Origin: Eledone cirrhosa
Taxonomy: Eukaryota
Direction: 5' to 3'
DNA length: 64,000 bases
NCBI GenBank assembly: GCA_964016885.1
Contig: OZ024743.1
Coordinates: forward strand, 85,498,001-85,562,000
This document shows, piece by piece, positions 1 to 41,310 of this stretch. The translations under genes and the position numbers were made by a program. Positions within the stretch are counted from its first letter, which is position 1. Each line of letters opens with the position of its first letter. The notes beneath the pieces were generated by a model, which made no database searches, was not told the origin of the DNA, and saw only the letters and a list, made by a program, of their open reading frames with translations.

Positions 1-2300
1 ACGTTTGGATCTGATTTGATGACATGGCCAGCCTTGAGTAAACATGGTGTAGGAAAATGCAACCAAAATGGTGATTCACTCCTTACTTTTTGCACTGAAC
101 ATCAGCTTGTGATAGCAAGTCCTTTCTTTCAACAAAAAAATAAATATAAAACAACCTGGATGCATTCAAGGTCTAAGCAATGGCATCTTATTGACTGTTT
201 TGGTATGCAAATCAGATTTGAAAGATGTCCACAGTATCTGAACTATGAGAGGAGCAGATTGCTGGACAGGCCATAGGCTAGTGAGAGGGAAGTGTAATTT
301 TTCAATCCATTCCAAAATTAGAAAGGAAGGCTTTAGCGTATCAAATGGAACATAGTGAACTTTAATTCCCCAACTTTATTGCAAAATTTTCATGATGCAA
401 TAAGAGGTGTCTCACTTGAACAAGAAAATCCATGGCAGAATTTCAAATTAAAAATCTATAATGCAGCATCTTCTATTTTGGGCTACACATCTAAGAGAAT
501 AGCAGATTGGTTTATTGACAATGACTTGGAAATTAATAATCTTCTTAAGGAAAAGCAACAACTAAGCAAAGCAAATTCTAACCAAGACATGAGATATAAA
601 TCAATTGAATTAAAAATTCAATATAGTCTCTGAAAAATGAAAGATAAGTAGTGGCACTTCAAGGAAAAGATGCAGAAGCTGGTATAGACCGTGAAGATAC
701 AAAAGCCTTCTTCTCTTATGTAAAAGAGTTTTAGGTCTTAGATCAATGTTTATAGTCCCAGTGAGATCTGTTGATGGCCAACATCTCTTTACTGTAATTA
801 CAGCCATACAAAAGTGACGGGTACAGCACTATTCTGATCTTCTCGATGGATGAACAAATGTAAATATGAGAATAATTGAGGAAATGTTTGACCTACCTGT
901 TGACAAAAAATATCTGTTGAGCCAATACAAGTTTATATTACAGCAACTGTAAAATAGCTGAATAACAATAAAGCCCCAGGTATTGATGGTATTAGTTCAG
1001 AAATGTTGATGTCTGGTGGGGAAAGGATGACTGAATTACTTTACTCCTTACTTGTATTGGAGAAAAGAGGAGGTGCTTCAAAACTGGGTTGATGCTATTC
1101 TCATTTCCTTACATAAATCTGGTCCCAATGACTTATGTGGAATATCTTAACTGTCAGTTATTGGAAAGGTGCTCTCTCATGTTCTCTTAGAGTGCCTTGA
1201 TAAATTTATTGTCTTGGGGGCAGTTTTAGAGTCAGAGTGTGACTTTCTCACCTCTCAAGGGACAGTTGGCATGATCTTTACTATCTGGTAGCTACAAAAG
1301 AAATGCAACGAATAAAAAATGGGCTTATACTATTGTTCTGTGGATCTTAGCAAAGCTTTTGACACATAAATGTTATATGGCTAGTGCTGAAGAAATTTGG
1401 CTGCCCTGAACAGTTTGTGAACATAACCAAAGCTCTCCATAAGGATATGAAGGTCCAGGTTTGGAACCCTATCGGAACCATTTCTTGTTGGAAATGGAGT
1501 TAAGCCAAGATGAACTCAAGGCACCAACACTTTTCTCCATATATTTTGCCATTGTGCTATCAAATACATTTCCAATTTCAACAAATGGCATCTATATATG
1601 ATACCACACTTTAGGTAATGTGTTTAATCTGACAAGAATGAGCTTCAAATCCAAAGTCTTTTCTTCTCTGATACATGATATTTTATATGCAGATGACTGT
1701 GACCTGATAAGTCACACTGAGCAAGGCGTACGGAACTTAATTAGTGCATTTGATTCTTCATGAAACATCTTACAATAAATTTGAAAAAAACTGTTGTAAT
1801 ACATCAACCTGCCCCCGGAGAACAAAGTGATGCACCTCAGATACTGGTTAAGAGTACAGTGCTTAAAGTTGTAAATTTCTTTGAATACCTGAGGAGCCTG
1901 GTATATGTTGATGGAAAATCACTTCTCACATTCAAAGGGCAGCAAAAGCTTTTGGCAGCCTAGAACCTAAATTCTGGTCAAAGTGCCATATCAAGGGTGA
2001 TACTAAGATCATAGTATGTCTCATCTATTATTTATGCTGGGAAAGAGAAAAAGTAGTAAGCCCAAGAAAAAATACAAAGATTCTTTAAAAGCAAATTTGA
2101 AATGTCTTAGATTTTGTTACAAAAGTCTTGAATCACTGACAGCAAACAGGGAAGCATGGTGAGCTACGATTTGGAGTGGTATGTCAACCTCAAGATTTTG
2201 AAGTTGACATAATAAAGCATACTGAAACAGAAAGAAAAGTTTGTAAAATTTAGATTAATAGCAATAGCTAGGAAAGAGCAGTTATAGGTACAAGAAGAGT
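1..2300 (+). mobile_element. Degenerate RTE-clade (BovB-like) LINE, endonuclease to C-terminus, many stops and frameshifts
   Basis: APE motifs GVGKCNQNG..LLTFC..HQLVI..FFQ..KYKTTWMH.RSKQWHLID (16-276); DWF..ND (355-633); NNKAPGIDG near 961; LYADDC at ~1683-1700; INLKKTVV..QP near 1775. Right boundary approximate. Confidence 0.85.
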
Positions 2301-2349
2301 TTAAGCTCTGCAATATGTGTGTACAGATAGATAGATACATGTATACATA

Positions 2350-2752
2350 ATCATCGTTTAACGTCAATTGTCCACATTAGCATGGATAGGACGGCAGTCC
2401 CTTTGTGACAGATCAGGTTGGAGGACCCTTTCTCGCTCAAACAGAAATGATTTGGGCTTGGTTTCTACAGCTGGATACCCTTCCTAATGCCAACCACATT
2501 TACAGTGTGGGCTTGGTGCTTTTTGTCATGTCACCTACATGACCACACTGTAGTGTGAGCTGGATACTTTTTGTCGTGACACCCACACAACTACTTTACA
2601 GTGTGGACTGGGCGTTTTTTGTCGTGACACCTACACGACCACTTTAGAGTGTGGACTGGGTGCTTTTGTCATGACTCCAGCTGAAGCATATGGGGATCTT
2701 CTGTAATACTGCATAACACCAGAGATCACGGTCCTGTGTCATCGCCTTAGCG
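2350..2752 (-). mobile_element. 3' UTR fragment of the RTE-PHD LINE family, with ~48-bp internal tandem units
   Basis: tcatcgtttaacgtc tail and ggtttctacagctggat.cccttcctaa..ccaaccac block shared with the fuller copies at 26-59 kb; 3-4 units of tacagtgtgg..ttttgtcgtgacacc at 2501-2675. Confidence 0.75.
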
Positions 2753-2778
2753 ATATATATATATAGGTTTGATGCCGG

Positions 2779-3476
2779 GTGCTGGACAGTGGAATGAAAA
2801 TCAGTACTGTGAACACTGAGAAACCCATCCTCTCAAGGAACCCAGTGCAATTCACACTACATCTGAGTGGAGTTCCACTGAAACAGGTCGAGAAGTTCAA
2901 ATATCATGGAGCTGTGTTCATGAGTGATGGAAGGCAGGAGGCTGAATTAAGTACAAAAATTGCCGGAGCTGCTGCAGAAATGTGCCAGCTTCAGCATTAG
3001 GTCATCAGACGAAGGGAAGTAGGTGTAAAAGCCAAACTCGCCATCTTTAATTCAATATTCATTCCAACCCTTGCCTATGGTCATACATTTTGTGTATTGA
3101 CCAAAAGAATACTATTTTGAATACAAGTGGCTGAAATGGGATTCCTCCAAAGGGTCTTTGGAGTAACATTACTTGATAGAGTACATAGCTCAGAAATCAG
3201 AGAGTCACTCCAAATAGAGCTATTTTTTTGAATTGAAAGATTACAGCTCCAATACTACTGGTATGTGATTAGAATATCTCAGAAAGAATCACTGGTCAGA
3301 TTTTACAGGCAAAACCAACCAGTAGTAAACCCAGGGGTAGACCACAAGCAAGATGGTTGGATAACATCTATGAACTCAGCTGGGAATCCAGCAGGATCAA
3401 TTAGTGATGGTTGCTTCTGATAGGACCTGCTGGAAGGAGTCCTTGAAAACCATGACCCTCCCAAGAAGAAGAAGAT
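2779..3476 (+). mobile_element. 5'-truncated RTE LINE of a different subfamily (RT thumb to 3' end)
   Basis: LKQVEKFKYHGAVFMSDGRQEAELSTKIAGAAA; downstream PTLAYGH and RGRPQARW-like remnants; (AAG)n tail at ~3463-3475. Confidence 0.75.
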
Positions 3477-3780
3477 AGTGGTGGTGGTGATGATAATTAT
3501 GCACACACACACACACACACACACATTTATAACAAATAGAAAAAGAAAGGGCAGTGACAGAATTTAAAATGTGAGAAAAAGAGAGAGAGAGTAAAATATT
3601 GCAGTAGTCAACTGTATTACACTCCTCCTTCCTCTCTGCAGTATGGTGAAGAAATATTCAAGGAAAATAACATAGAAAGATGTAACGTCTCCTGTAGTAC
3701 ATCATGGTAATTGAGTGGTGTGTGTGTGTACATGTATATATATATATATATACATACATACATACAGGCACGCACGCACG

Positions 3781-3814
<34 letters not shown>

Positions 3815-4142
3815 AATAATAATAATACTATTTATAGTTATGTATATAGTATAAACAACTATAAACAGGAAAAGTCAGTAATTTCCTACTACCTTATTAC
3901 CAGTAAGAGAAATAGCTCAATGCAAGAACATCAGTTGTTTTACAGAGCAGGAAAATAAAAAAAATATCTGTTGCATGTATTCCACTCTGTGCTTTTAATT
4001 TGAATTATTGTACAATTCTCGTTTAATATATGTCGCATCCAGTACACCCTGTAATTACGAAACTGTTGCTCATAACATCAATATATGTATCTATATGATT
4101 GTTCAGTTGAATAGGAGGTTAGTTATATGTACAAACATTGAT

Positions 4143-4194
4143 AATGCTCCGATGATTCCAAACGAAAGTTTGGAAGAAACGATTGTTAGTTATT
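4143..4194 (+). ncRNA. Degenerate type I hammerhead ribozyme (Penelope-type)
   Basis: gct-CCGATGA-ttccaaac gaaa gtttggaa (perfect 8-bp helix II)-GAAA-cgattg-TT-agt; the core carries U>C (CCGA) and helix I is weak. Confidence 0.5.
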
Positions 4195-4417
4195 AAATGA
4201 TTTGAACACAACTTTGATAATTGTCTAATTTATATATATCAATATATTATATATTTAAAACATATTTGTAATGTTATTTATACAATTGTGAATAAAAGTA
4301 TCAAATATATATATGTGTGTGTATGTAATTGAGAAGAGTTTCCAAAGAGTATCGAAAAGAAACCACAGATAATTACACATTTCAAACGAATGAAACAGTT
4401 CTAGTCGTGTAGAAGCC

Positions 4418-4492
<75 letters not shown>

Positions 4493-4539
4493 TTTATTTA
4501 TTTATTTGCCATAGGAATATCGGAGGAAGGAACTTTAAT

Positions 4540-4690
4540 GGTTTCTAATTTAGGCACGAAGGCCAGCAAATTTGATAGATGAGGAAAATCTATTTAAATC
4601 GACATTAGTATTCGATTAGTATTTAATTTATGATAATAACAATAATGGCGATAAAAAAATTGATTTCTGATCGAAGTTGAAGGTCAGACA
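4540..4690 (-). repeat. Fragment of an abundant SINE family (further fragments at ~13436-13600, ~17485-17580, ~18025-18060, ~18570-18716, ~23750-23850, ~24195-24250, ~25058-25180)
   Basis: Recurrent ggcacaaggccagcaa..gtcgatt..atcgac..actggtacttatttt..aggcaaagt..acct..ggatttgaactcag; the end is the reverse complement of a GTTCAAAT B-box. Confidence 0.6.
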
Positions 4691-4784
4691 TTTTGTGAAG
4701 AAGAATTGAGATTGTGTGACATTCATGCTTTTCTTGAAGGTTGAATAAATAATAGTTTATTTTTTAGTAAGACAACGTGCTTCG

Positions 4785-5180
4785 TGTGAGTCTGTGTCCG
4801 TGTGTGTGGGTCTATGTATATATGTTTGTGTGTTTGGGTCTGTGCCTCTGTATCTGTGTATGTCAATTTGAGCTTGTATGTGGGGATATATGTGCCTGTC
4901 CCTGACTATGTGCTCGTGTGTGTGTATCCGTGTATGTGGGTTTATATGCCTGTGTGTGTGTGTATTTTAGGCTCGAATGTATGGGTTTATGTGTGTGTAT
5001 TCGTATGTGTCTGTGTATTTGCGCTCGTATATGTGGGTCTATGTGCCTATGTATCCGTGTATTTGTGTTCGTATGTGTGGGTCTATGTACCTGTGTATCC
5101 GTGGATGTGTGCGGGTCTATCTGTCTCTGTATGTGTACGTCTGTATGTATGTGTCTTCGCGTGTGTGTGAGCGTGCGCCT
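4785..5180. repeat. Degenerate (TG)n/(TGTA)n low-complexity tract
   Basis: Directly visible. Confidence 0.85.
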
Positions 5181-7070
5181 GCATATATTTTAAAGACGAT
5201 ATATGATATAAGTACTTTTATCTGTTCTAAGCCTCTGTTATCCAAACTATAACATCAATTACAACAACAATAATGACTTATAATCAAGTTCTCTTGCGTG
5301 ACACCACAATCGAGAAAGACATAAAAGCCGCTGGCCCTCATTTACCGTTACATAAAACCTAACTAAAGCCGAAAGAAACCATTTATTATAATAATTAATA
5401 TTTTGAAAGAGAACTACACGAACGAAAGCCATAGCCGTTTTTATTTTTGACAGATGATCATCACAAGAGGCGGGAAATTATATATATATATATTTACAGA
5501 TATATATATATATATATATATTATATATCGACAGATGCGTGTAAATGTATATATGCAAATCTGTAAATGTATATATGCATATCTATATATATACACAAAT
5601 GTGTCACTACTATCGATGTTATTTCGTGTTCTTTACAATATATATATATATTTCTAATAAAAATAGGCATTAAAATTAAACTATGGATGGACTTTACTTT
5701 GGAATGTGAGAAAACCAGTATTTAAAATCTATACAACCACATATACACATCGCTAACAGTCACAATTCTCTTTTTGCTTTAAGGCAATTGTACCGCTTTA
5801 TGTGTGTATATATATATATATATAAATCTAAATTATATACACACACACACATTATATATATCTATATATATACACACACACATTATATATATATATATAT
5901 ATATACATAGACACACACATTATTTATATATATATGTGTGTGTGTGTTTACATATATTACTCACTGCTATACCGCCAGTAAGCAGACAATAGTTATTTCA
6001 GTGATCATCACTCGCACCTTAAAACAAATTGAGCGGAATTTTACTTCGTTTACCTTATTTGGTTCGGAAGAGACTTGAAAAAAAAACATGAAAGAAATAT
6101 ACATAACAGTCTGTTAATATATTACAACTGTTCTGGCGTGGCCAGAGTAGGATGTGTCACGGTTTCGCATCCCATTCTTGGTCATAAAACATTTATGGTG
6201 ATAATGTCTTTCAGAAAGGCATGAAAACCGCACAATCCCCGTTTCTCAGAGGAGCTTTTTTACGACCCGAAAGAATATTTAAAAAGATCACAAAAAATAA
6301 AATTCTAATTAAGAATGGTAGTGCCCTAACATGGCGTCAGCTTTTCTGTGAACAGTTTTGTTTTCTTTCCCGTCATTAATTACACCAGGGGAAGGGCATA
6401 GAAGTCACTACATCGGTCTGTATAGCCTCAAATCACAATATGCATATATATATATATGGGGGGGGGGGGTTAAATAGATCTAGCTGTCGAAACGAACAGA
6501 GCTCAGTCGTCGGGGTCCTGACTGTTCCCATAGATAGATGGATTGATATAGATAGCTAAATAATTATAGGTTTACAAGGTGGTGGTGATGGTGTGAGCTG
6601 TGTCGACAGAAGTAGATCGATGACATCAACCCACCCTACTACCTTAAACTGCAAGACGAAAGCAAGCAAGATGAAGAAGTGAGTGCGCGGTTTTGGAAAG
6701 AAAGAAAGACAAAAACGAAAGTGACACACAACATGGCGCCTCTTGCGGTTTGGTTCACCCAATATATTAGCCAGTGAGAATATACAGGATATTACACTGA
6801 TTACTGTAGTAGATTATAAACCAACATATACTGTATATATATTAAATAGATAGTTCACTAAATATCAGTATAATATATGTATATGAATATGTGTGTATAT
6901 AATGTATTTGTATGTGTGTGTGTGTATATATATATATATCAGATAAGGTGTGGTAAAAAACCAGCTAGACCATAACCCACCAGAGTACTCGATACTTGGG
7001 GTAGTAGAGTGGGTAATATGAAAAGATTCAGCCGTCAGGGTCCTGAATTTTTTCATATATATATATATAT

Positions 7071-30736: not shown

Positions 30737-33583
30737 CAGTGGCGTAGCTAGGGTAAACGGCGCCCAGGGCAAGCATCAAAATTGCCCCCCCTCAAAAAGT
30801 CAAGATCCACCAAGACGAAATTGCGATAGAATTTATAATAAAAAAACAAAAAACGGTTACAATTTGATTTTTCGGGCTTTTAATGAGGCAAACTTTTTGA
30901 TAATTTCCTCGAAATTAGTTCGTTCAAACTCTTCGATTTCTACACTCAAAAGGCCAAGGTCAGTCAGCCGTTGTTGGCCCATTGAGATTCGCAAATACTA
31001 ATGTATTAGCTTTAGCTTGCTGAACGACCTCTCGTAACTGGCAATTGAAATAGAAATCGTCAACATTATTTGAATGCTGTGGATTGGCAGTATCGGTAGA
31101 GGGTCGGACGCCATGTCTCTGTTTCATCATCACTAATTTTTTCGAGAACTTGAACAATCAGCGTTAAATAATTTGCCACCGGTCTGACTGCGGTACATCT
31201 AGCACTCCACCGCGTGTCGGAAGGATATTTAACAACTACTGGAGCAACTTCTTTAAGGGCTTCCCATCGTCGTGTTGAACAAGAAAAAAAGTTGTATAAC
31301 GAGTCAATGCAACTGAAAAAGTTCATCATAGCAGAATCGTTTTTCGCTGCATGAAGACCAGCCAGATTAAGTGAATGGTTATCGCAAATAACGAAGTGAA
31401 TCAAATTATTCTTCTTTCTCATTCTCTGCTGAACCCCACTGCGGTGCCCAGCATTATGGCAGCATTGTCGTAGCACTGCGATTGACAGTTCTGCAGTGGT
31501 GGGTCATCTTTTTCTAGCTCTGTCACGATTGTTTCAACAAGGCTTGCGGCATCTTTTCTGATTACTTGAATGAATCCAAGAAAAGATTCCCTCCCAACGA
31601 CTGTCTTCATATTGAAATCAACATCGACATATCACACAACTTTTGACAGTTGTTCTCGGTGCGCCTGGTCAGGGGTCGAATCAATCAGCAGACCATAGTA
31701 TGTTGCTTTTTGGATACGATTTAGTAAATTCTGACGAACTGTATTATAGAAGAAAACATTGAACCATCTAAACTGGAGTCGTATTGAATTCCTAATAGAA
31801 GCGATCTGATCCTATCTGGCCATTTGGATTATGATACCTTTTCTTATGTACCAGTTGTAAAAGACAAACTACTTTGTTTTGTAAACCAGCTTCATAATTA
31901 TAATTATCCCATGGGAACTCCTGTATGCTGATGACCTCGCACTTATAGCTGAATCTATGGTAGAACTAGAGAGGAAATTCCAAACTTGGAAGCAGGGACT
32001 AGAAAGAAAGGGTCTCAAAGTCAACATGACAAAGATTAAGGTCCTTGTAAGTAGACAAGAAAACAGAACCCAGATCCCCTCAGGGAAATGGCCTTGCTCA
32101 GTATGTAGGAAAGGTGTAGGTAGGAACTCCATTCTCTGCCCCAAATGCAAACAATGGGTACACAAGAGATGTAGCGGGATCTCAGGATGCTTAATTAAGA
32201 ATGTAGGCTTCACATGCAACAGCTGTGCTGGGACAGCAAACGGCCACAGGAAACAAGTACCACCAATCTCTGGGAGGGCTCTGTAGAAACAGTAGACAGC
32301 TTCTGCTACCTAGGTGACCGAATTAGCAGCGGAGGTGGGTGTTCAGAAAGTACAATAACTAGGGTAAGAACGGGATGGAAGAAGTTCAGGGAACTACTGC
32401 CACTGCTAGCTGCAAAAGGCTTCTCCCTCAAAATGAAAGGCAGACTGTATGATGCGTGTATCCGAACAGCAATGTTACATGGTAGTGAGACCTGGGCGCT
32501 GAAGGTGGAAGACTTACGTAGATTAGAAAGAAACGAAGCCTGCATGTCCGATGGATGTGTAATAGTAATATAGGCGAACGACAAAGCATAAATGAATTGA
32601 GAGAGAGACTGAGCATAAGAGGAATCAAATGCTGTGTGCAGGAGAGGCGGTTGCGTTGGTATGGACATGTGATACGTATGAAGGATGACAGCTGTATAAA
32701 AAGGTGCAGAGCACTAGAAGTCGATGGAAACCGCGGAGTGGGGAGACCCAAGAAGACCTGGGATGAGGTGATAAAAGCCGACCTTACCCAATTACACCTC
32801 TCAAAGGTGATGACACACGACCGTGACCTCTGGCCTCGCGCAGTAATACAGAGTACCCGACCTCCCATGGGTACAAGCTGAAGCATATAGACAATATGCC
32901 CCCACACCCTCCCACTGCAAGGTGGTCGTGGAGGTGCCACGGCAAAAAAGCACCCAGCCCACACTGTAAAGTGGACGTGTAGGCGCCACGGAAAAAGCAC
33001 CCAGCACTCACTGTAAATGAGGTTGGTGTTAGGAAGGGCATCCAGCTGTAGAAATCAAGCCAAAATCAGTTCCTGTATGAGCAAGGCATGGTCAGCCGAC
33101 CAGACACTGCCCACAACAGGACAACCCGTCTAACCCATGCTAGCATGGAAGAACGAACGTAAAATGGTGAGGTTGATGATCTTGTATTGGTCATTGCAAT
33201 GCATTGCTAAAAATAGCGCCTGCGTGTCCACCAGTTGCACGTTCAAAACTACGTCCCTTCAGTCAGTGTGGGGTGGGGGGCGGTTTTGTGAGGTCAAGTG
33301 AGGTTTTGCAATGTATAGCTAAAAATAGCGCCCGCATAATTCCAACTCACCCTGCTGTCAGTGTGGAGGAGGGGGGGGGGGGGGCATTTTTGTGAAGTCA
33401 AATCAGACATCTGCTCTGTCTAGTGCACTAGACATGGCGTGGAAGTTGGCTATCAAGAATCACATGCTTCATTTTTGGTTTTTATTTTTAAAAATGATAA
33501 AAACGACATGGATGTAGTTGCGCCCCCCTAAATATGACGCCTGTGGCATGTACCCTGCTTGCCACACTCTAGCTACGCCACTG
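30737..33583 (-). mobile_element. Internally deleted hAT DNA transposon (Tip100/ZMYM1-like) carrying an RTE insertion
   Basis: 15-bp TIR CAGTGGCGTAGCTAG / CTAGCTACGCCACTG; 8-bp TSD tatatatg; transposase remnants YYGLLIDSTPDQAHREQLS, ESFLGFI, QCYDNAAIM, FVICDNHSLNL, DTRWSAR, QQRLTDLGLLSVE, FEEIIKKFASLKARK (30850-31740). Confidence 0.95.
31908..33180 (+). mobile_element. RTE-PHD LINE subfamily B, 5'-truncated, nested in the hAT
   Basis: PWELLYADD start, PHD finger, [21 protein letters not shown], distinct 3' UTR, gatgat tail. Confidence 0.95.
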
Positions 33584-33628: not shown

Positions 33629-33689
33629 ATATATATGTATATATATATATATGTATGTGTGTGTATATATATATATATGTATATATGTA

Positions 33690-36257
33690 TTTAGCAGGAT
33701 GGAGTATCAGTAGTCGTGGTCGCCAATTCCAGCAGCATGGGTTATATATGTTATTGAGACACGAGTAACATAATAATGATTTCAACAGCAGTAATTAGAG
33801 ATGAAATGTATGTTTATTTTTGATGTAGTACAAACAATGTTTGTTAACTTCTATGGTTGAAGTTACAGATAAAAAGAGGTTACAAAAGGGAATGTGCCAT
33901 TGCGCCGTTAAGCCGGCGAGGCTAGGGTGCAATATCTCACTGTTACATTAAGCATGTTGCTGGCTTGAAGTTTCCGGTACAAGAGAGAGATTCTTCAAAT
34001 CTTCGCGGGGAATTTCTTCCTCAGGGCGCGTAGGGATACATCCTCTTCTACTGGCGCTGATTGGCTGAACTGAGCCAAATCATGCACAGAGAATGTATGT
34101 GAGCCCGCGGAATGTAGGTCACTACATCACCTCCGACCAGATTTTCAGCCGAAAATCGATAACGAAGAAACCAAGGACCCACAAGGAAGTCGATACAGAT
34201 TATTGAATCAGCAAGAACAATTGCTGAAAGAGCACATCAGTGAAAAAATAATTGAGCAGAAAGATTCATGCAAGAACAAAAAAATAATTAGGCGCGACGG
34301 GCCGTGTTGAGCCGCTGTCAAATGACTAGCTGTTTTGTAGTTTAAACGAGACCCTCAAGGGCCTACCAGAAAACAGATAAAGTCTGACATGGGCGAAGTT
34401 GCTGTCCTTGCATTAAATGTTAATGGTAAGCGTTGTACCAGTAGCTGTGAACGAAGCTATTATGGTAGTTTACCAGTGCTGGCGAGAAAATGATGGCCCT
34501 CAGAGATGTATTGTCGAATGTGATGCGGAACCAGGAAAAAATGGCTGGTTGCTTTGTAAAGAAAAAAAAAAGCAAGTTTAATCTGTAGGTGGGTTGCAGT
34601 GTAAATTCCATAATTCGGGCGAATCCACAGAAGTGGCCGAAATGCTGACAAGTTCAGTTCAATTTGTTGCTTTCCCAGCGAGTCGGGCGAAAACAACAAG
34701 ACGGATGGCCGTCATGGACGATCAGTGTGCAACGAGATGCGAAGCTGTTTGAGTTCAGCTGCAATTAGTAATCTCGTGTTGCGGTGCCTGTTTGAATCCA
34801 GTGGATTAAGCTCTGTGAGTTGCTAGCATGTGACAGCATCTCAACCAGGTGAAAAGGGACTCGCAGAATATTACGTTTGAAGAACATATACCAAGAACAT
34901 GTTGGTGTGTGATAAAAAAAATGTGTGCATATGCAGGCATGTTAAACAGCAAAGAATGTGAATGAACAAAAACCATGAGCAAGCAAATAGCAAAAGAGCA
35001 CAAAACAAGTAAATGCATTCTACAAAGAAATATGTGAATGTAACAAACTGATAATTCAAAGTCAATCTAAGGGAGCAGAGAAATTGCTCAATAAGTTCAA
35101 AGTTTTTCAAAGTCAAATAGTTCACACATCACCAGTGTACAGACACTAGTTCTATCTGAAAACTGAAAAAGAAGTTTGTTAATGCCGTTAGGGGTTAGAT
35201 GTATGGTGTTTTTGTGAGTTTTCGTGGCCATCTTGTGTGGCATAAGGTTGTGTTGCTTATTGTTAAAGCAAAGTCAAAGAATCTTCTGTAGAGTAGGAGT
35301 CACCAAATATGGCAGCCACGTCTGACGCCATAATGGTGAGAAAACTACTGTCTCAATTTCTCGAGTCCCTGTGGTAACGAGACAGAAGGTATGGTGGTTG
35401 CGTCGGTAAGGCTATGAAGCTGCCACTCACTGTTCCCTGTATTGGTCAGTGGTTAAACAACGCTGTCGCTGCTGCTGTCGTTGTTGTTGGTAGCCATCTT
35501 GAAATTTCTTTGTGGCGAAAAGTTTTTGAAATACTGCTAATTTTTCAAAAATCTTAAAAGGAATATTTTTTATTTTCGCAAGTTGCGAAAAGGTTGGCAA
35601 CGTGGCAATAAAAGTTCAACTGAATAAAAAAGAAGGGCTGCGTTAAATTCTTACGTCGGTCACCACTTTAGCAGTCTTGGTTATAGAGTAGTCGTGGTCG
35701 CCACTTTAGCAGGGTGGTAGATTGATTGAAGGTCGTTAGTTGCCAGTGTGGTAAGTGATAGTATCCTCGTTGGATTATCTTGTTGACATAGACGTGAGGG
35801 AAGGTCCCTTGATCTATTTACCATCTATTTACAATATTCCTTTCGTCAGGTCGCCAATTCCAGCAGCATGGGTTATATATGTTATTGAGACACGAGTAAC
35901 ATAATAATGATTTCAACAGCAGTAATTAGAGATGAAATGTATGTTTATTTTTGATGTAGTACTAACAGTGTTTGTTAACTTATATGGTTGAAGTTACAGA
36001 TAAAAAGAGGTTACAAAAGGGAATGTGCCATTGCGCTGTTAAGCCGGCGAGGCTAGGGTGCAATATCTCACTGTTACATTATGCGTGTTGCTGGCTTGAA
36101 GTTTCCAGTACAAGAGAGAGATTCTTCAAATCTTCGCGGGGAATTTCTTCCTCAGGGCGCGTAGGGATACATCCTCTTCTACTGGCGCTGATTGGCTGAA
36201 CTGAGCCAAATCACGCACAGAGAATGTATGTGAGCCCGCGGAATGTAGGTCACTACA
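33690..36257 (-). mobile_element. Non-autonomous LTR retrotransposon (3' LTR ~33690-34126, 5' LTR ~35667-36257)
   Basis: ~410-bp near-identical direct repeats (33718-34126 and 35849-36257) starting TGTAG on the minus strand; PBS TGGTGACCGACGT at ~35653-35665; purine-rich GGTCGGAGGTGA before the 3' LTR; TSD tgta(t); no recognisable gag or pol ORF. Confidence 0.85.
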
Positions 36258-37141
36258 TGTATGTATATATGTATATATATATCATCATCATCATCATCAT
36301 CGTTTAACGTCCATCTTCCACGCTTGCATGGGTTTGGACGGGAACTTTCCCACTTGAGGTAAGATTGGTTGACTTGCTCGTATAGGACTGTCTGGCGGGT
36401 TTTCTACGGCTGGATGCCCTTCCTAACACTAACCACGTTTACAGTGTGGTCTGGGAGGTTTTTACCGTGTTACCTACACTGCCATATTACAGCGTGGACT
36501 GTGTGTTTTTTTTGTCGTGACACCTACACGACCTCATTTGTTTCGGACTGGATGTTGTGGTACCAACATAACTTTACATTGAAAAGGGTGGTGTGGGTGG
36601 GGTGGGGGTAGTGAAACGGGGGGTGTATTTTTGTTAGAGGTGCCTACTGACTGTAGGTTTCGCTTTGTTCTTAGGCAAGGCGGGTCTTCTGTATTACTGT
36701 GTAGCGCCAAAGATCTCGGTCCAGTGACATTGTCTTAGAGAGGTGTGAGGTCGGAATTTATCTAGTCGTCCCAGGTTTTTCTGGGTCTGCCTACTCCGTG
36801 GCTACAGTCTATTTTTATTGCCCTGCACTTTTTTATACAGCTGTCGTCTTTCATGCGCATCACGTGTGACCGTACCAATGTAGTCTTCTCTCGAGTAAAC
36901 AACATCTGATCCCTCTTATTCCTAATTTCTCCCTTAGTTCATTTATGCTTTGCTGTTCACGTATATTACTATTATACATCCAGCGGAGCATGCAAGCTTC
37001 GTTCTTCTCCAGTCTGCGTATATCCTCTGCACACAATGTCCAAGTCTCACTGCCATGTAACATTGCTGTTCGTATGCAGGCATCATACAGCCTGCCTTTT
37101 ATTTTTAGAGAGAACCCTTTAGTGGCCAATAGTGGTATAAG

Positions 37142-37497
37142 TATAATGAAAAATGTAAGTCGTTAGATCAGAAGGCATTAAATAGACAAACTCCATTACA
37201 AATATGTACTTCATTTATTCTTGCTTCACACTGTGAAAGTCATTTTGCCTGTATTTCCATGTGTGAGATACGACAGGATATGACGTGTCGAAGAATCAAC
37301 GTTCTGACGATAGCAGATTTATCTGGAGACTGGTCTTCTGTCTTAACTTCCGTTCTCTGGTCTAAGTAGTCCAGTTACTTGTATCGTTACGCCGAAGGTT
37401 TTGATTGGCTCACACTTCAGCCGATTTACTTCCGTAACATTTTTCTTCCGCCGAAGGAAAATACATTTAATTACAAAGGATATATATTACTGCTACA
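37142..37497 (-). repeat. 3' LTR (356 bp)
   Basis: Direct repeat of 41816-42142. Confidence 0.95.
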
Positions 37498-40915: not shown

Positions 40916-41310
40916 TGGATGGAAAACGAACAGGGCTGGTTACAAGAGCGTGCCGCCACGCCAAAACGGCTGTGGTAGTAGCACAGTCCTGGCTTGCTTG
41001 TGTGGCGGCGGTGTGGCGAGGGCGAACGGCTCTGGAAGCGACGTCTGGGCGATTGAGCCCTGGAGGTACTCAATTTTCTCACCTCTTTGGTGAGTTGCTC
41101 TATGGCTTGAAGTATTGCCACAGGCACAAGTGAGTGATCGGTGTGGACGGCAGCTGCAGGAGAGAACGAAGAGACCGCAGCCGGTGGCTGAGGTGCAACA
41201 TAGGAGGCAGGGTTTCCAGTGAAACTTATAATTTTGTCGGCCGAAGCCGCTAGCTGGTCGACTGTGGTGGTCTCCATCTAAAATCGCCTGAACACCGGGC
41301 AGCAGAGAGG
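40891..41310 (-). pseudogene. gag: Truncated Gypsy gag C-terminus
   Basis: LAASADKI, RSPS basic patch, CHCC knuckle, QGN slippery site. Confidence 0.9.

Follow-up and report, generated by a model that had tools for sequence, protein, structure and literature searches.

Anatomy of the element and its surroundings

The window analyzed here, a stretch of 64,000 nt, carries on its minus strand an LTR element of 2,568 bp (36257 to 33690) with TACA repeats on both sides. These repeats may represent the target-site duplication (TSD) of the element, with a 5′ copy at 36258–36261 and a 3′ copy at 33686–33689, both read on the minus strand; readings as a 4-bp TACA or a 5-bp ATACA fit equally well, and because the repeats lie inside a TA/CA microsatellite, a chance match is possible. 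The 5′ LTR has a long form that begins with TGTAG and probably ends with CTGCTAAA at 35705 (35705–36257, minus strand, 553 bp), an end point suggested by a step in read depth and by a contig from another organism, both described below. The 3′ LTR has a short form of 437 bp (33690–34126, minus strand). The two LTRs differ at 8 of their 409 common bases—consistent with a preliminary description of this DNA, in which the roughly 410 bp of LTR outside the unit array were called near-identical—and they diverge only past these shared bases, at a stack of modules that each combine an LTR end with a tRNA primer-binding site (PBS). The LTRs start with TG and end with AA (CTGCTAAA), departing from the TG...CA rule; PMC8220671 treats TG...CA termini as usual rather than obligatory. 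The LTR contains a single AATAAA (35944–35949, minus strand), which is likely to serve as the poly(A) signal, and its position therefore suggests that all of the stacked units lie in U5 or in the leader.

The interior of the element (34135–35652, minus strand) is noncoding: its longest stop-to-stop frame is 86 aa, none of the 16 interior frames of at least 45 aa matched a Pfam family, and a search of Rfam with the element returned no match. A short purine-rich tract, GGAGGTGA (34127–34134, minus strand), lies ahead of the 3′ LTR and is the likely PPT. DIRS and Ngaro elements have split or inverted terminal repeats, without a TSD or a tRNA PBS. The element has instead plain direct LTRs, a PBS, and a purine tract, and the 25 longest inverted repeats listed include no long one that belongs to it. 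Together with the lack of any detected gag or pol gene and its presence in multiple copies, these features identify the element as a gene-less, multi-copy LTR retrotransposon of the nonautonomous kind; a second copy is absent from the 64,000-nt window.

Several other features were observed in the surrounding sequence. LINE fragments in opposite orientation lie on both sides of the element (32393–33062 and 36393–37142) and are approximately 75–83% identical to each other. An intronless 14-3-3 gene (21717–22502, minus strand) is positioned head-to-head with an intronless 374-codon frame (approximately 22709–23728, plus strand) that has no match in Pfam or PDB; about 200 bp separate the 14-3-3 gene from the first ATG of this frame, and the region is otherwise filled with repeats. 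A tRNA-headed, SINE-like repeat, with a tail similar to the 3′ end of an abundant LINE, occurs at 15500–15838, 24480–24833, and 62880–63210. The first of these copies includes a weak Rfam tRNA match (15505–15562), the only one obtained; the window yielded no tRNA gene.

Stacked LTR-end and PBS units

The preliminary description placed three units in the 5′ array, and all of their motifs were located at the minus-strand positions given for them; a fourth, decayed unit that starts at 35745 had been overlooked. Read along the minus strand, unit 1 (35839–35866) lies inside U5 and joins a degenerate end signal (CTGCTGGAAT from 35866), which has only CTGCT in common with the true LTR end, to a PBS-like site of the Arg type that pairs with a 2-nt bulge (TGGCGACC from 35856). 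The body of spacer 1 follows (35746–35838, minus strand), and then the fourth unit, here termed unit 1.5 (35705–35745, minus strand), for which alignment to the other units suggests a decayed PBS head, a variable tail, and a CTGCTAAA end signal. Unit 2 consists of CTGCTAAAG from 35712 and the PBS TGGCGACCACGA from 35703 (35692–35703, minus strand). Beyond it, spacer 2 contains a second CTGCTAAA end signal (35667–35691, minus strand) and leads into unit 3, in which CTGCTAAAG from 35674 is followed by TGGTGACCGACGT from 35665, a PBS of the tRNA-Trp type with a 2-nt bulge (35653–35665, minus strand). In the 3′ LTR, the terminal module (33690–33725, minus strand) opens with TGGCGACCACGACTACT at 33725 and comprises an intact 12-nt Arg PBS (33725–33714), a tail of its own, and the terminus CTGCTAAA at 33690. 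All of these modules can be aligned to one another, each being composed of a PBS head, a tail of approximately 15–20 nt, and a CTGCTAAA end signal.

The core motif TGGYGACC occurs three times in 2,130 nt, a number reached in none of 5,000 first-order Markov simulations; at least one copy appeared in 155 of the 5,000. An inverted anti-PBS copy was not found within the element. Spacer 1 also holds, in its segment 35793–35755 (minus strand), the motif CAACGAGGAT near 35770. We take this motif to resemble a decayed Ser-type PBS, which may be either a further relic or a product of chance. The spacers had previously been called unique, and the 135-nt spacer 1 is indeed unique within the window; it is, however, a family-wide U5 sequence that organisms B and C also carry (see below), and is covered in all four of the sequencing runs that were mapped (X1, X4, X6, and X8).

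Pairing with tRNA 3′ ends

Pairing was scanned over 2,546 windows of the element using published 3′ ends of human tRNA-Arg and tRNA-Trp, which may differ from those of the host (tRNA-Arg from PMC11905727, correcting a Trp label discussed in PMC4724089; tRNA-Trp from 10.1101/400127 and PMC5029493). Unit 2 and the 3′-LTR unit each match the human tRNA-Arg end at 12 of 12 positions (dG −24.0 in both cases), and unit 1 pairs with the human Arg 18-mer through a 2-nt bulge (dG −23.9 to −24.1); these three are the best Arg sites among the 2,546 windows. The best human-Trp site in the element is unit 3, with its 2-nt bulge (dG −19.7 to −19.9), by a small margin over an interior site at 35306 (dG −19.2). 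With these human ends, then, the earlier assignment of the motifs to tRNA-Arg and tRNA-Trp PBSs is borne out. The Arg and Trp cores are one base apart within their first eight, and unit 2 matches human Trp at 10 of 12 positions, as against 12 of 12 for Arg; as judged from these alignments, the division of units 2 and 3 between Arg and Trp rests on few bases. Priming probably takes place mainly at unit 2 (Arg), with unit 3 (Trp type) as a likely spare farther downstream, in the leader.

The presence of several tRNA-complementary sites in the 5′ leader lends plausibility, and only plausibility, to a different role for the additional PBS-like units, namely as decoys or targets for 3′ tRNA fragments with an LTR-silencing function. 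Complementarity is, however, lost in the upstream units (the PBS pairing of unit 1.5 is weak, with a dG of −11.7), and each unit is linked to an integrase-type end signal that would be superfluous in a decoy. We consider such a role very unlikely.

Representation of the family in public reads

Six sequencing runs, from three organisms (designated A, B, and C) and two studies, match part of the stretch. Reads or contigs of four of the ten runs listed were mapped to 34128–36257, comprising 1,626 contigs from X1 that extend over all 30 bins, 14 contigs from X4, 2 from X6, and 6,922 RAD reads from X8. The runs listed as matching included no RNA data, which carries no information on expression. A 483-nt contig of organism C covers 35731–36199 and ends 13 letters further on, and contig 14 of organism B covers 35400–35875, from which it departs by 23 substitutions and 44 gap letters, one of the substitutions lying within unit 2 (35697). 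Because the organism B contig runs across the stack, the stack is not private to the copy in the window. The long arrangement appears common to most of the family.

Depth in X1—a summed contig depth, and as such a rough guide rather than a copy number—is 19,913–144,598 in the bins of 35761–36257, 10,873 at 35690–35760, and 3,718–6,484 over 35406–35689. Per-position depth in spacer 2 (2,259–3,244) equals that in the leader (2,340–3,012), and depth drops to 174–597 at 35697–35724, where short contigs fail to map. The step at 35690–35760, together with the interior-level depth of spacer 2, suggests that the usual LTR end of the family is probably at 35705 (553 bp), just before unit 2, with unit 3 in the leader, as far as summed depth permits a rough placement. 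This profile favors one main end over the freely alternating LTR ends that had been proposed. The tail before 35705 is highly variable, with substitutions at 35722 and 35724 in both X4 and X8 and loose ends at 35723 (185 X8 reads) and 35731 (X6). Pile-ups of X8 reads at 35856/35859, 35927, 34607, and 34267/34270 were considered as candidate LTR ends and rejected, since they fall on AATT and CATG restriction sites, at which the RAD library was cut.

Joints that skip units were observed at 35674>35716, in one X1 contig with a depth of 17.5, and at 35665>35785, in 14 X8 reads with two start places; each is defined by the positions it joins. That the number of units varies among copies, as the preliminary description held, is thus upheld by skipping joints outside the window copy, but both joints are rare and the long form appears to predominate. 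At the opposite end of the element (34127–34191), the LTR is joined in two or more ways across the family: as in this copy (36257>34128), or through shorter 3′ ends with different G-rich purine tracts (36257>34185–34191). These differing 3′ ends point to subfamilies.

Units 2 and 3 were both found in organisms A and B, as might be expected if the stack were a selected multi-primer cassette of Arg and Trp modules. Such a cassette would allow priming from either tRNA, mobilization by different helper families, and alternative LTR lengths; its modules would be reshuffled at the shared core between co-packaged variants, and U5 would record past primer switches. The 9-nt end signal is the same in units 2 and 3 although their tRNA partners differ, unit 3 shows no difference among the 40 best-supported variants listed (spacer 2 shows three), and for HIV both dual PBSs and dual initiation have reportedly been described, all of which is in keeping with selection. 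However, unit 3 is only 22 nt long, which makes its constancy weak evidence, and the mapping yielded 366 further substitutions, as well as 55 indels and 329 loose ends, beyond the variants listed. Spacer 2, moreover, is found at interior rather than LTR depth, so that ends at unit 3 seem uncommon, and a bulge is a common property of Trp sites in CsRn1-like loci. On this evidence, a selected cassette appears unlikely.

Origin of the difference between the two LTRs

The 3′ terminal module is identical to unit 2 over 17 nt; of the next 12 columns, 6 depart from spacer 2, and the last 8 nt are again alike; at the rate observed across the LTR pair (8/409), six differences in such a tail have a probability of 4.7e-8. 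Compared with the tail of spacer 1 in its own element, the 3′ tail scored no better than chance (941 of 2,000 shuffles reached the score). Compared with the corresponding tail of organism C, it agreed at 11 of 13 letters, a score reached by 12 of 5,000 shuffles in what is a short comparison with a single contig. Because the tail is unlike both tails of its own 5′ LTR, neither deletion route from that LTR yields the 3′ end. The fusion of unit 1 to unit 2 in the 3′ LTR had been placed correctly in the preliminary description, but the "different spacer" reported there is akin to the spacer-1 end of organism C.

These comparisons bear on a simpler account, in which the family has a fixed long U5 with one working PBS, direct repeats in the 3′ LTR of this copy gave rise to a deletion after insertion, error-prone repair altered the tail, and the extra units are neutral relics. 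The long form does appear to be the common one, the switch in the 3′ LTR falls precisely on the 8-nt TGGCGACC repeat, with the first 17 nt equal to unit 2, and the surrounding region is heavily rearranged and rich in repeats. A single post-insertion deletion, the competing explanation raised at the outset, nevertheless does not explain a tail that departs from spacer 2 at half of its columns, resembles its own spacer-1 end at chance level, and yet matches organism C; unit-skipping joints, in addition, are present in other copies. We regard this account as improbable.

The remainder of the LTR pair suggests a common source. Both LTRs carry an allele at 35960 that is missing from 53 of 54 X8 reads and from 6,169 of 7,215 X1 depth, and this shared minority allele indicates that U3/R of both LTRs was derived from one template; the LTRs are also identical over 35962–35849. 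Both observations stand against a chimeric element, in which two separate insertions would have been joined by ectopic recombination in the interior or by an assembly error, as does the presence of the interior-to-LTR junction in X1 (depth 1,239) and X8 (94 reads). The TSD, being located in a microsatellite, is weak evidence for a single insertion, and no mapped piece extends across the whole element, but a chimeric origin is nonetheless highly improbable. The distal U5 of the 3′ LTR, by comparison of its tail with those of other copies, is likely to have come from a second, shorter family variant.

The 3′ LTR contains a 12/12 Arg PBS located 24 nt inside its end. An intact PBS in this position is the most direct sign that a PBS has been absorbed into U5, and to this extent it supports the earlier proposal that U5 grew by absorbing former PBSs; the history of that growth is one that we infer.

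A CsRn1-like neighbor and related loci

A neighboring Gypsy element (42141–37142, minus strand) is full-length but broken, with a CHCC gag at 40983, an RT, and an integrase. It interrupts an RTE-type LINE, is flanked by a clean TSD of 4 bp (CTTA), and has a single PBS of the bulged Trp type; its LTRs end in ATA, not CA, and its 5′ LTR is without 29 nt that are found in the 3′ LTR. PMC2582038 gives a Trp PBS, a 4-bp TSD, and a CHCC gag as features of CsRn1, and on these hallmarks the neighbor can be described as CsRn1-like. The CsRn1 clade has been reported in cephalopods (PMC8220671).

Querying with the neighbor's RT identified nine related metagenome loci, four of which were readable, with a PBS upstream of gag; the others (L005–L009) had no clear PBS there and were left out. 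One of the four readable CsRn1-like loci, L003, contains an independent junction duplication, in which a 14-nt core of LTR end and PBS is repeated at a spacing of 21 nt (600–634); the duplication is absent from L004, an 88% relative. The recurrence of a junction duplication in L003 makes a neutral origin of such structures plausible and lowers the surprise of the stack. A search of viral contigs with the same RT returned no confirmed relative, and the exact two-unit pattern had no match among metagenome contigs.

Proposed mechanism

We propose that the LTR-end/PBS junction was duplicated in tandem, that upstream modules were turned into U5, and that variants subsequently recombined, all within a gene-less element mobilized by a Gypsy helper; we consider this history reasonably probable. 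In LTR replication, minus-strand synthesis copies everything upstream of the used PBS into both new LTRs. Several tandem duplications of the junction would have supplied a second usable end and PBS, and priming at the downstream PBS would then have copied the upstream module into U5, where decay would follow. Units 1 and 1.5 may represent outcomes of such decay within absorbed modules, the former now lacking its end signal and the latter its PBS.

The crossover between family variants would have lain in the TGGCGACC core that they share. Under the standard replication model, a difference confined to the distal U5 is expected when strong-stop DNA starts on one of two co-packaged RNAs and is finished on the other. 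The exchange may have taken place in this way, during reverse transcription, or afterwards through gene conversion that replaced one end; the two routes are not separable here. Mobilization may have depended on a CsRn1-like Gypsy helper, although the clade is a guess, since no DNA or protein similarity was detected between the element and its CsRn1-like neighbor.

If this history is correct, the element illustrates the migration of an LTR end and the growth of U5, and past switches of tRNA primer remain readable in a natural family. Where 5′ and 3′ LTRs disagree in U5 alone, the disagreement would then not necessarily mean age, and annotation tools may misplace LTR boundaries and PBS calls in elements of this kind. 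Should both the Arg and the Trp modules be used, the element would represent a dual-primer parasite occurring in nature, on which the co-evolution of primer choice and integrase ends could be studied.

Comparison with known systems

The element works like an ordinary nonautonomous LTR element, to which the stacked junction and the unequal ends add an unusual twist. No report of stacked LTR-end and PBS modules in a natural family was found in the literature covered, which left most subscription journals and Repbase/Dfam outside. Li et al. are said to have described HIV-1 with dual PBSs in 1997, and Voronin and Pathak reportedly observed dual initiation in two-PBS vectors in 2004. These systems resemble the element in having more than one PBS on an RNA, and two PBSs can reportedly be kept and used there whether they bind one tRNA or two; they are, however, laboratory retroviruses or vectors, whereas the element belongs to a natural family.

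Members of the CsRn1 clade (CsRn1, Kabuki, Boudicca, and PwRn1; PMC2582038) resemble the element in their TGTAG start and short purine tract; a short TSD would also be shared on the preferred 4-bp reading of the TACA repeats, and unit 3 may correspond to their bulged Trp-type PBS. In contrast to these, the element has no gag or pol, and thus neither the CHCC motif, which is present only in the neighbor, nor an RT by which it could be placed; its main PBS is apparently of the Arg type; and it carries four stacked modules of LTR end and PBS, with a PBS inside the 3′ LTR. The element may be a nonautonomous member of the Ty3/gypsy group, possibly within the CsRn1 clade.

Drosophila Gypsy, with its bipartite PBS, likewise has more than one tRNA-binding site per element, but the two sites described in PMC1635307 lie one at each end of the genome, 5′ and 3′, share a single tRNA, and do not form tandem, end-linked modules. 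A further parallel at the PBS region is given by cqgypsy_1 of Culex quinquefasciatus, an element of the Osvaldo lineage, in which a 26-nt duplicate of the LTR end is associated with tRNA-related sequence (Marsano et al., 2012; PMC3286476). In cqgypsy_1, two whole tRNAs (149 bp) lie between the duplicates; the element described here differs in having short PBS modules only, which are stacked and occur family-wide.
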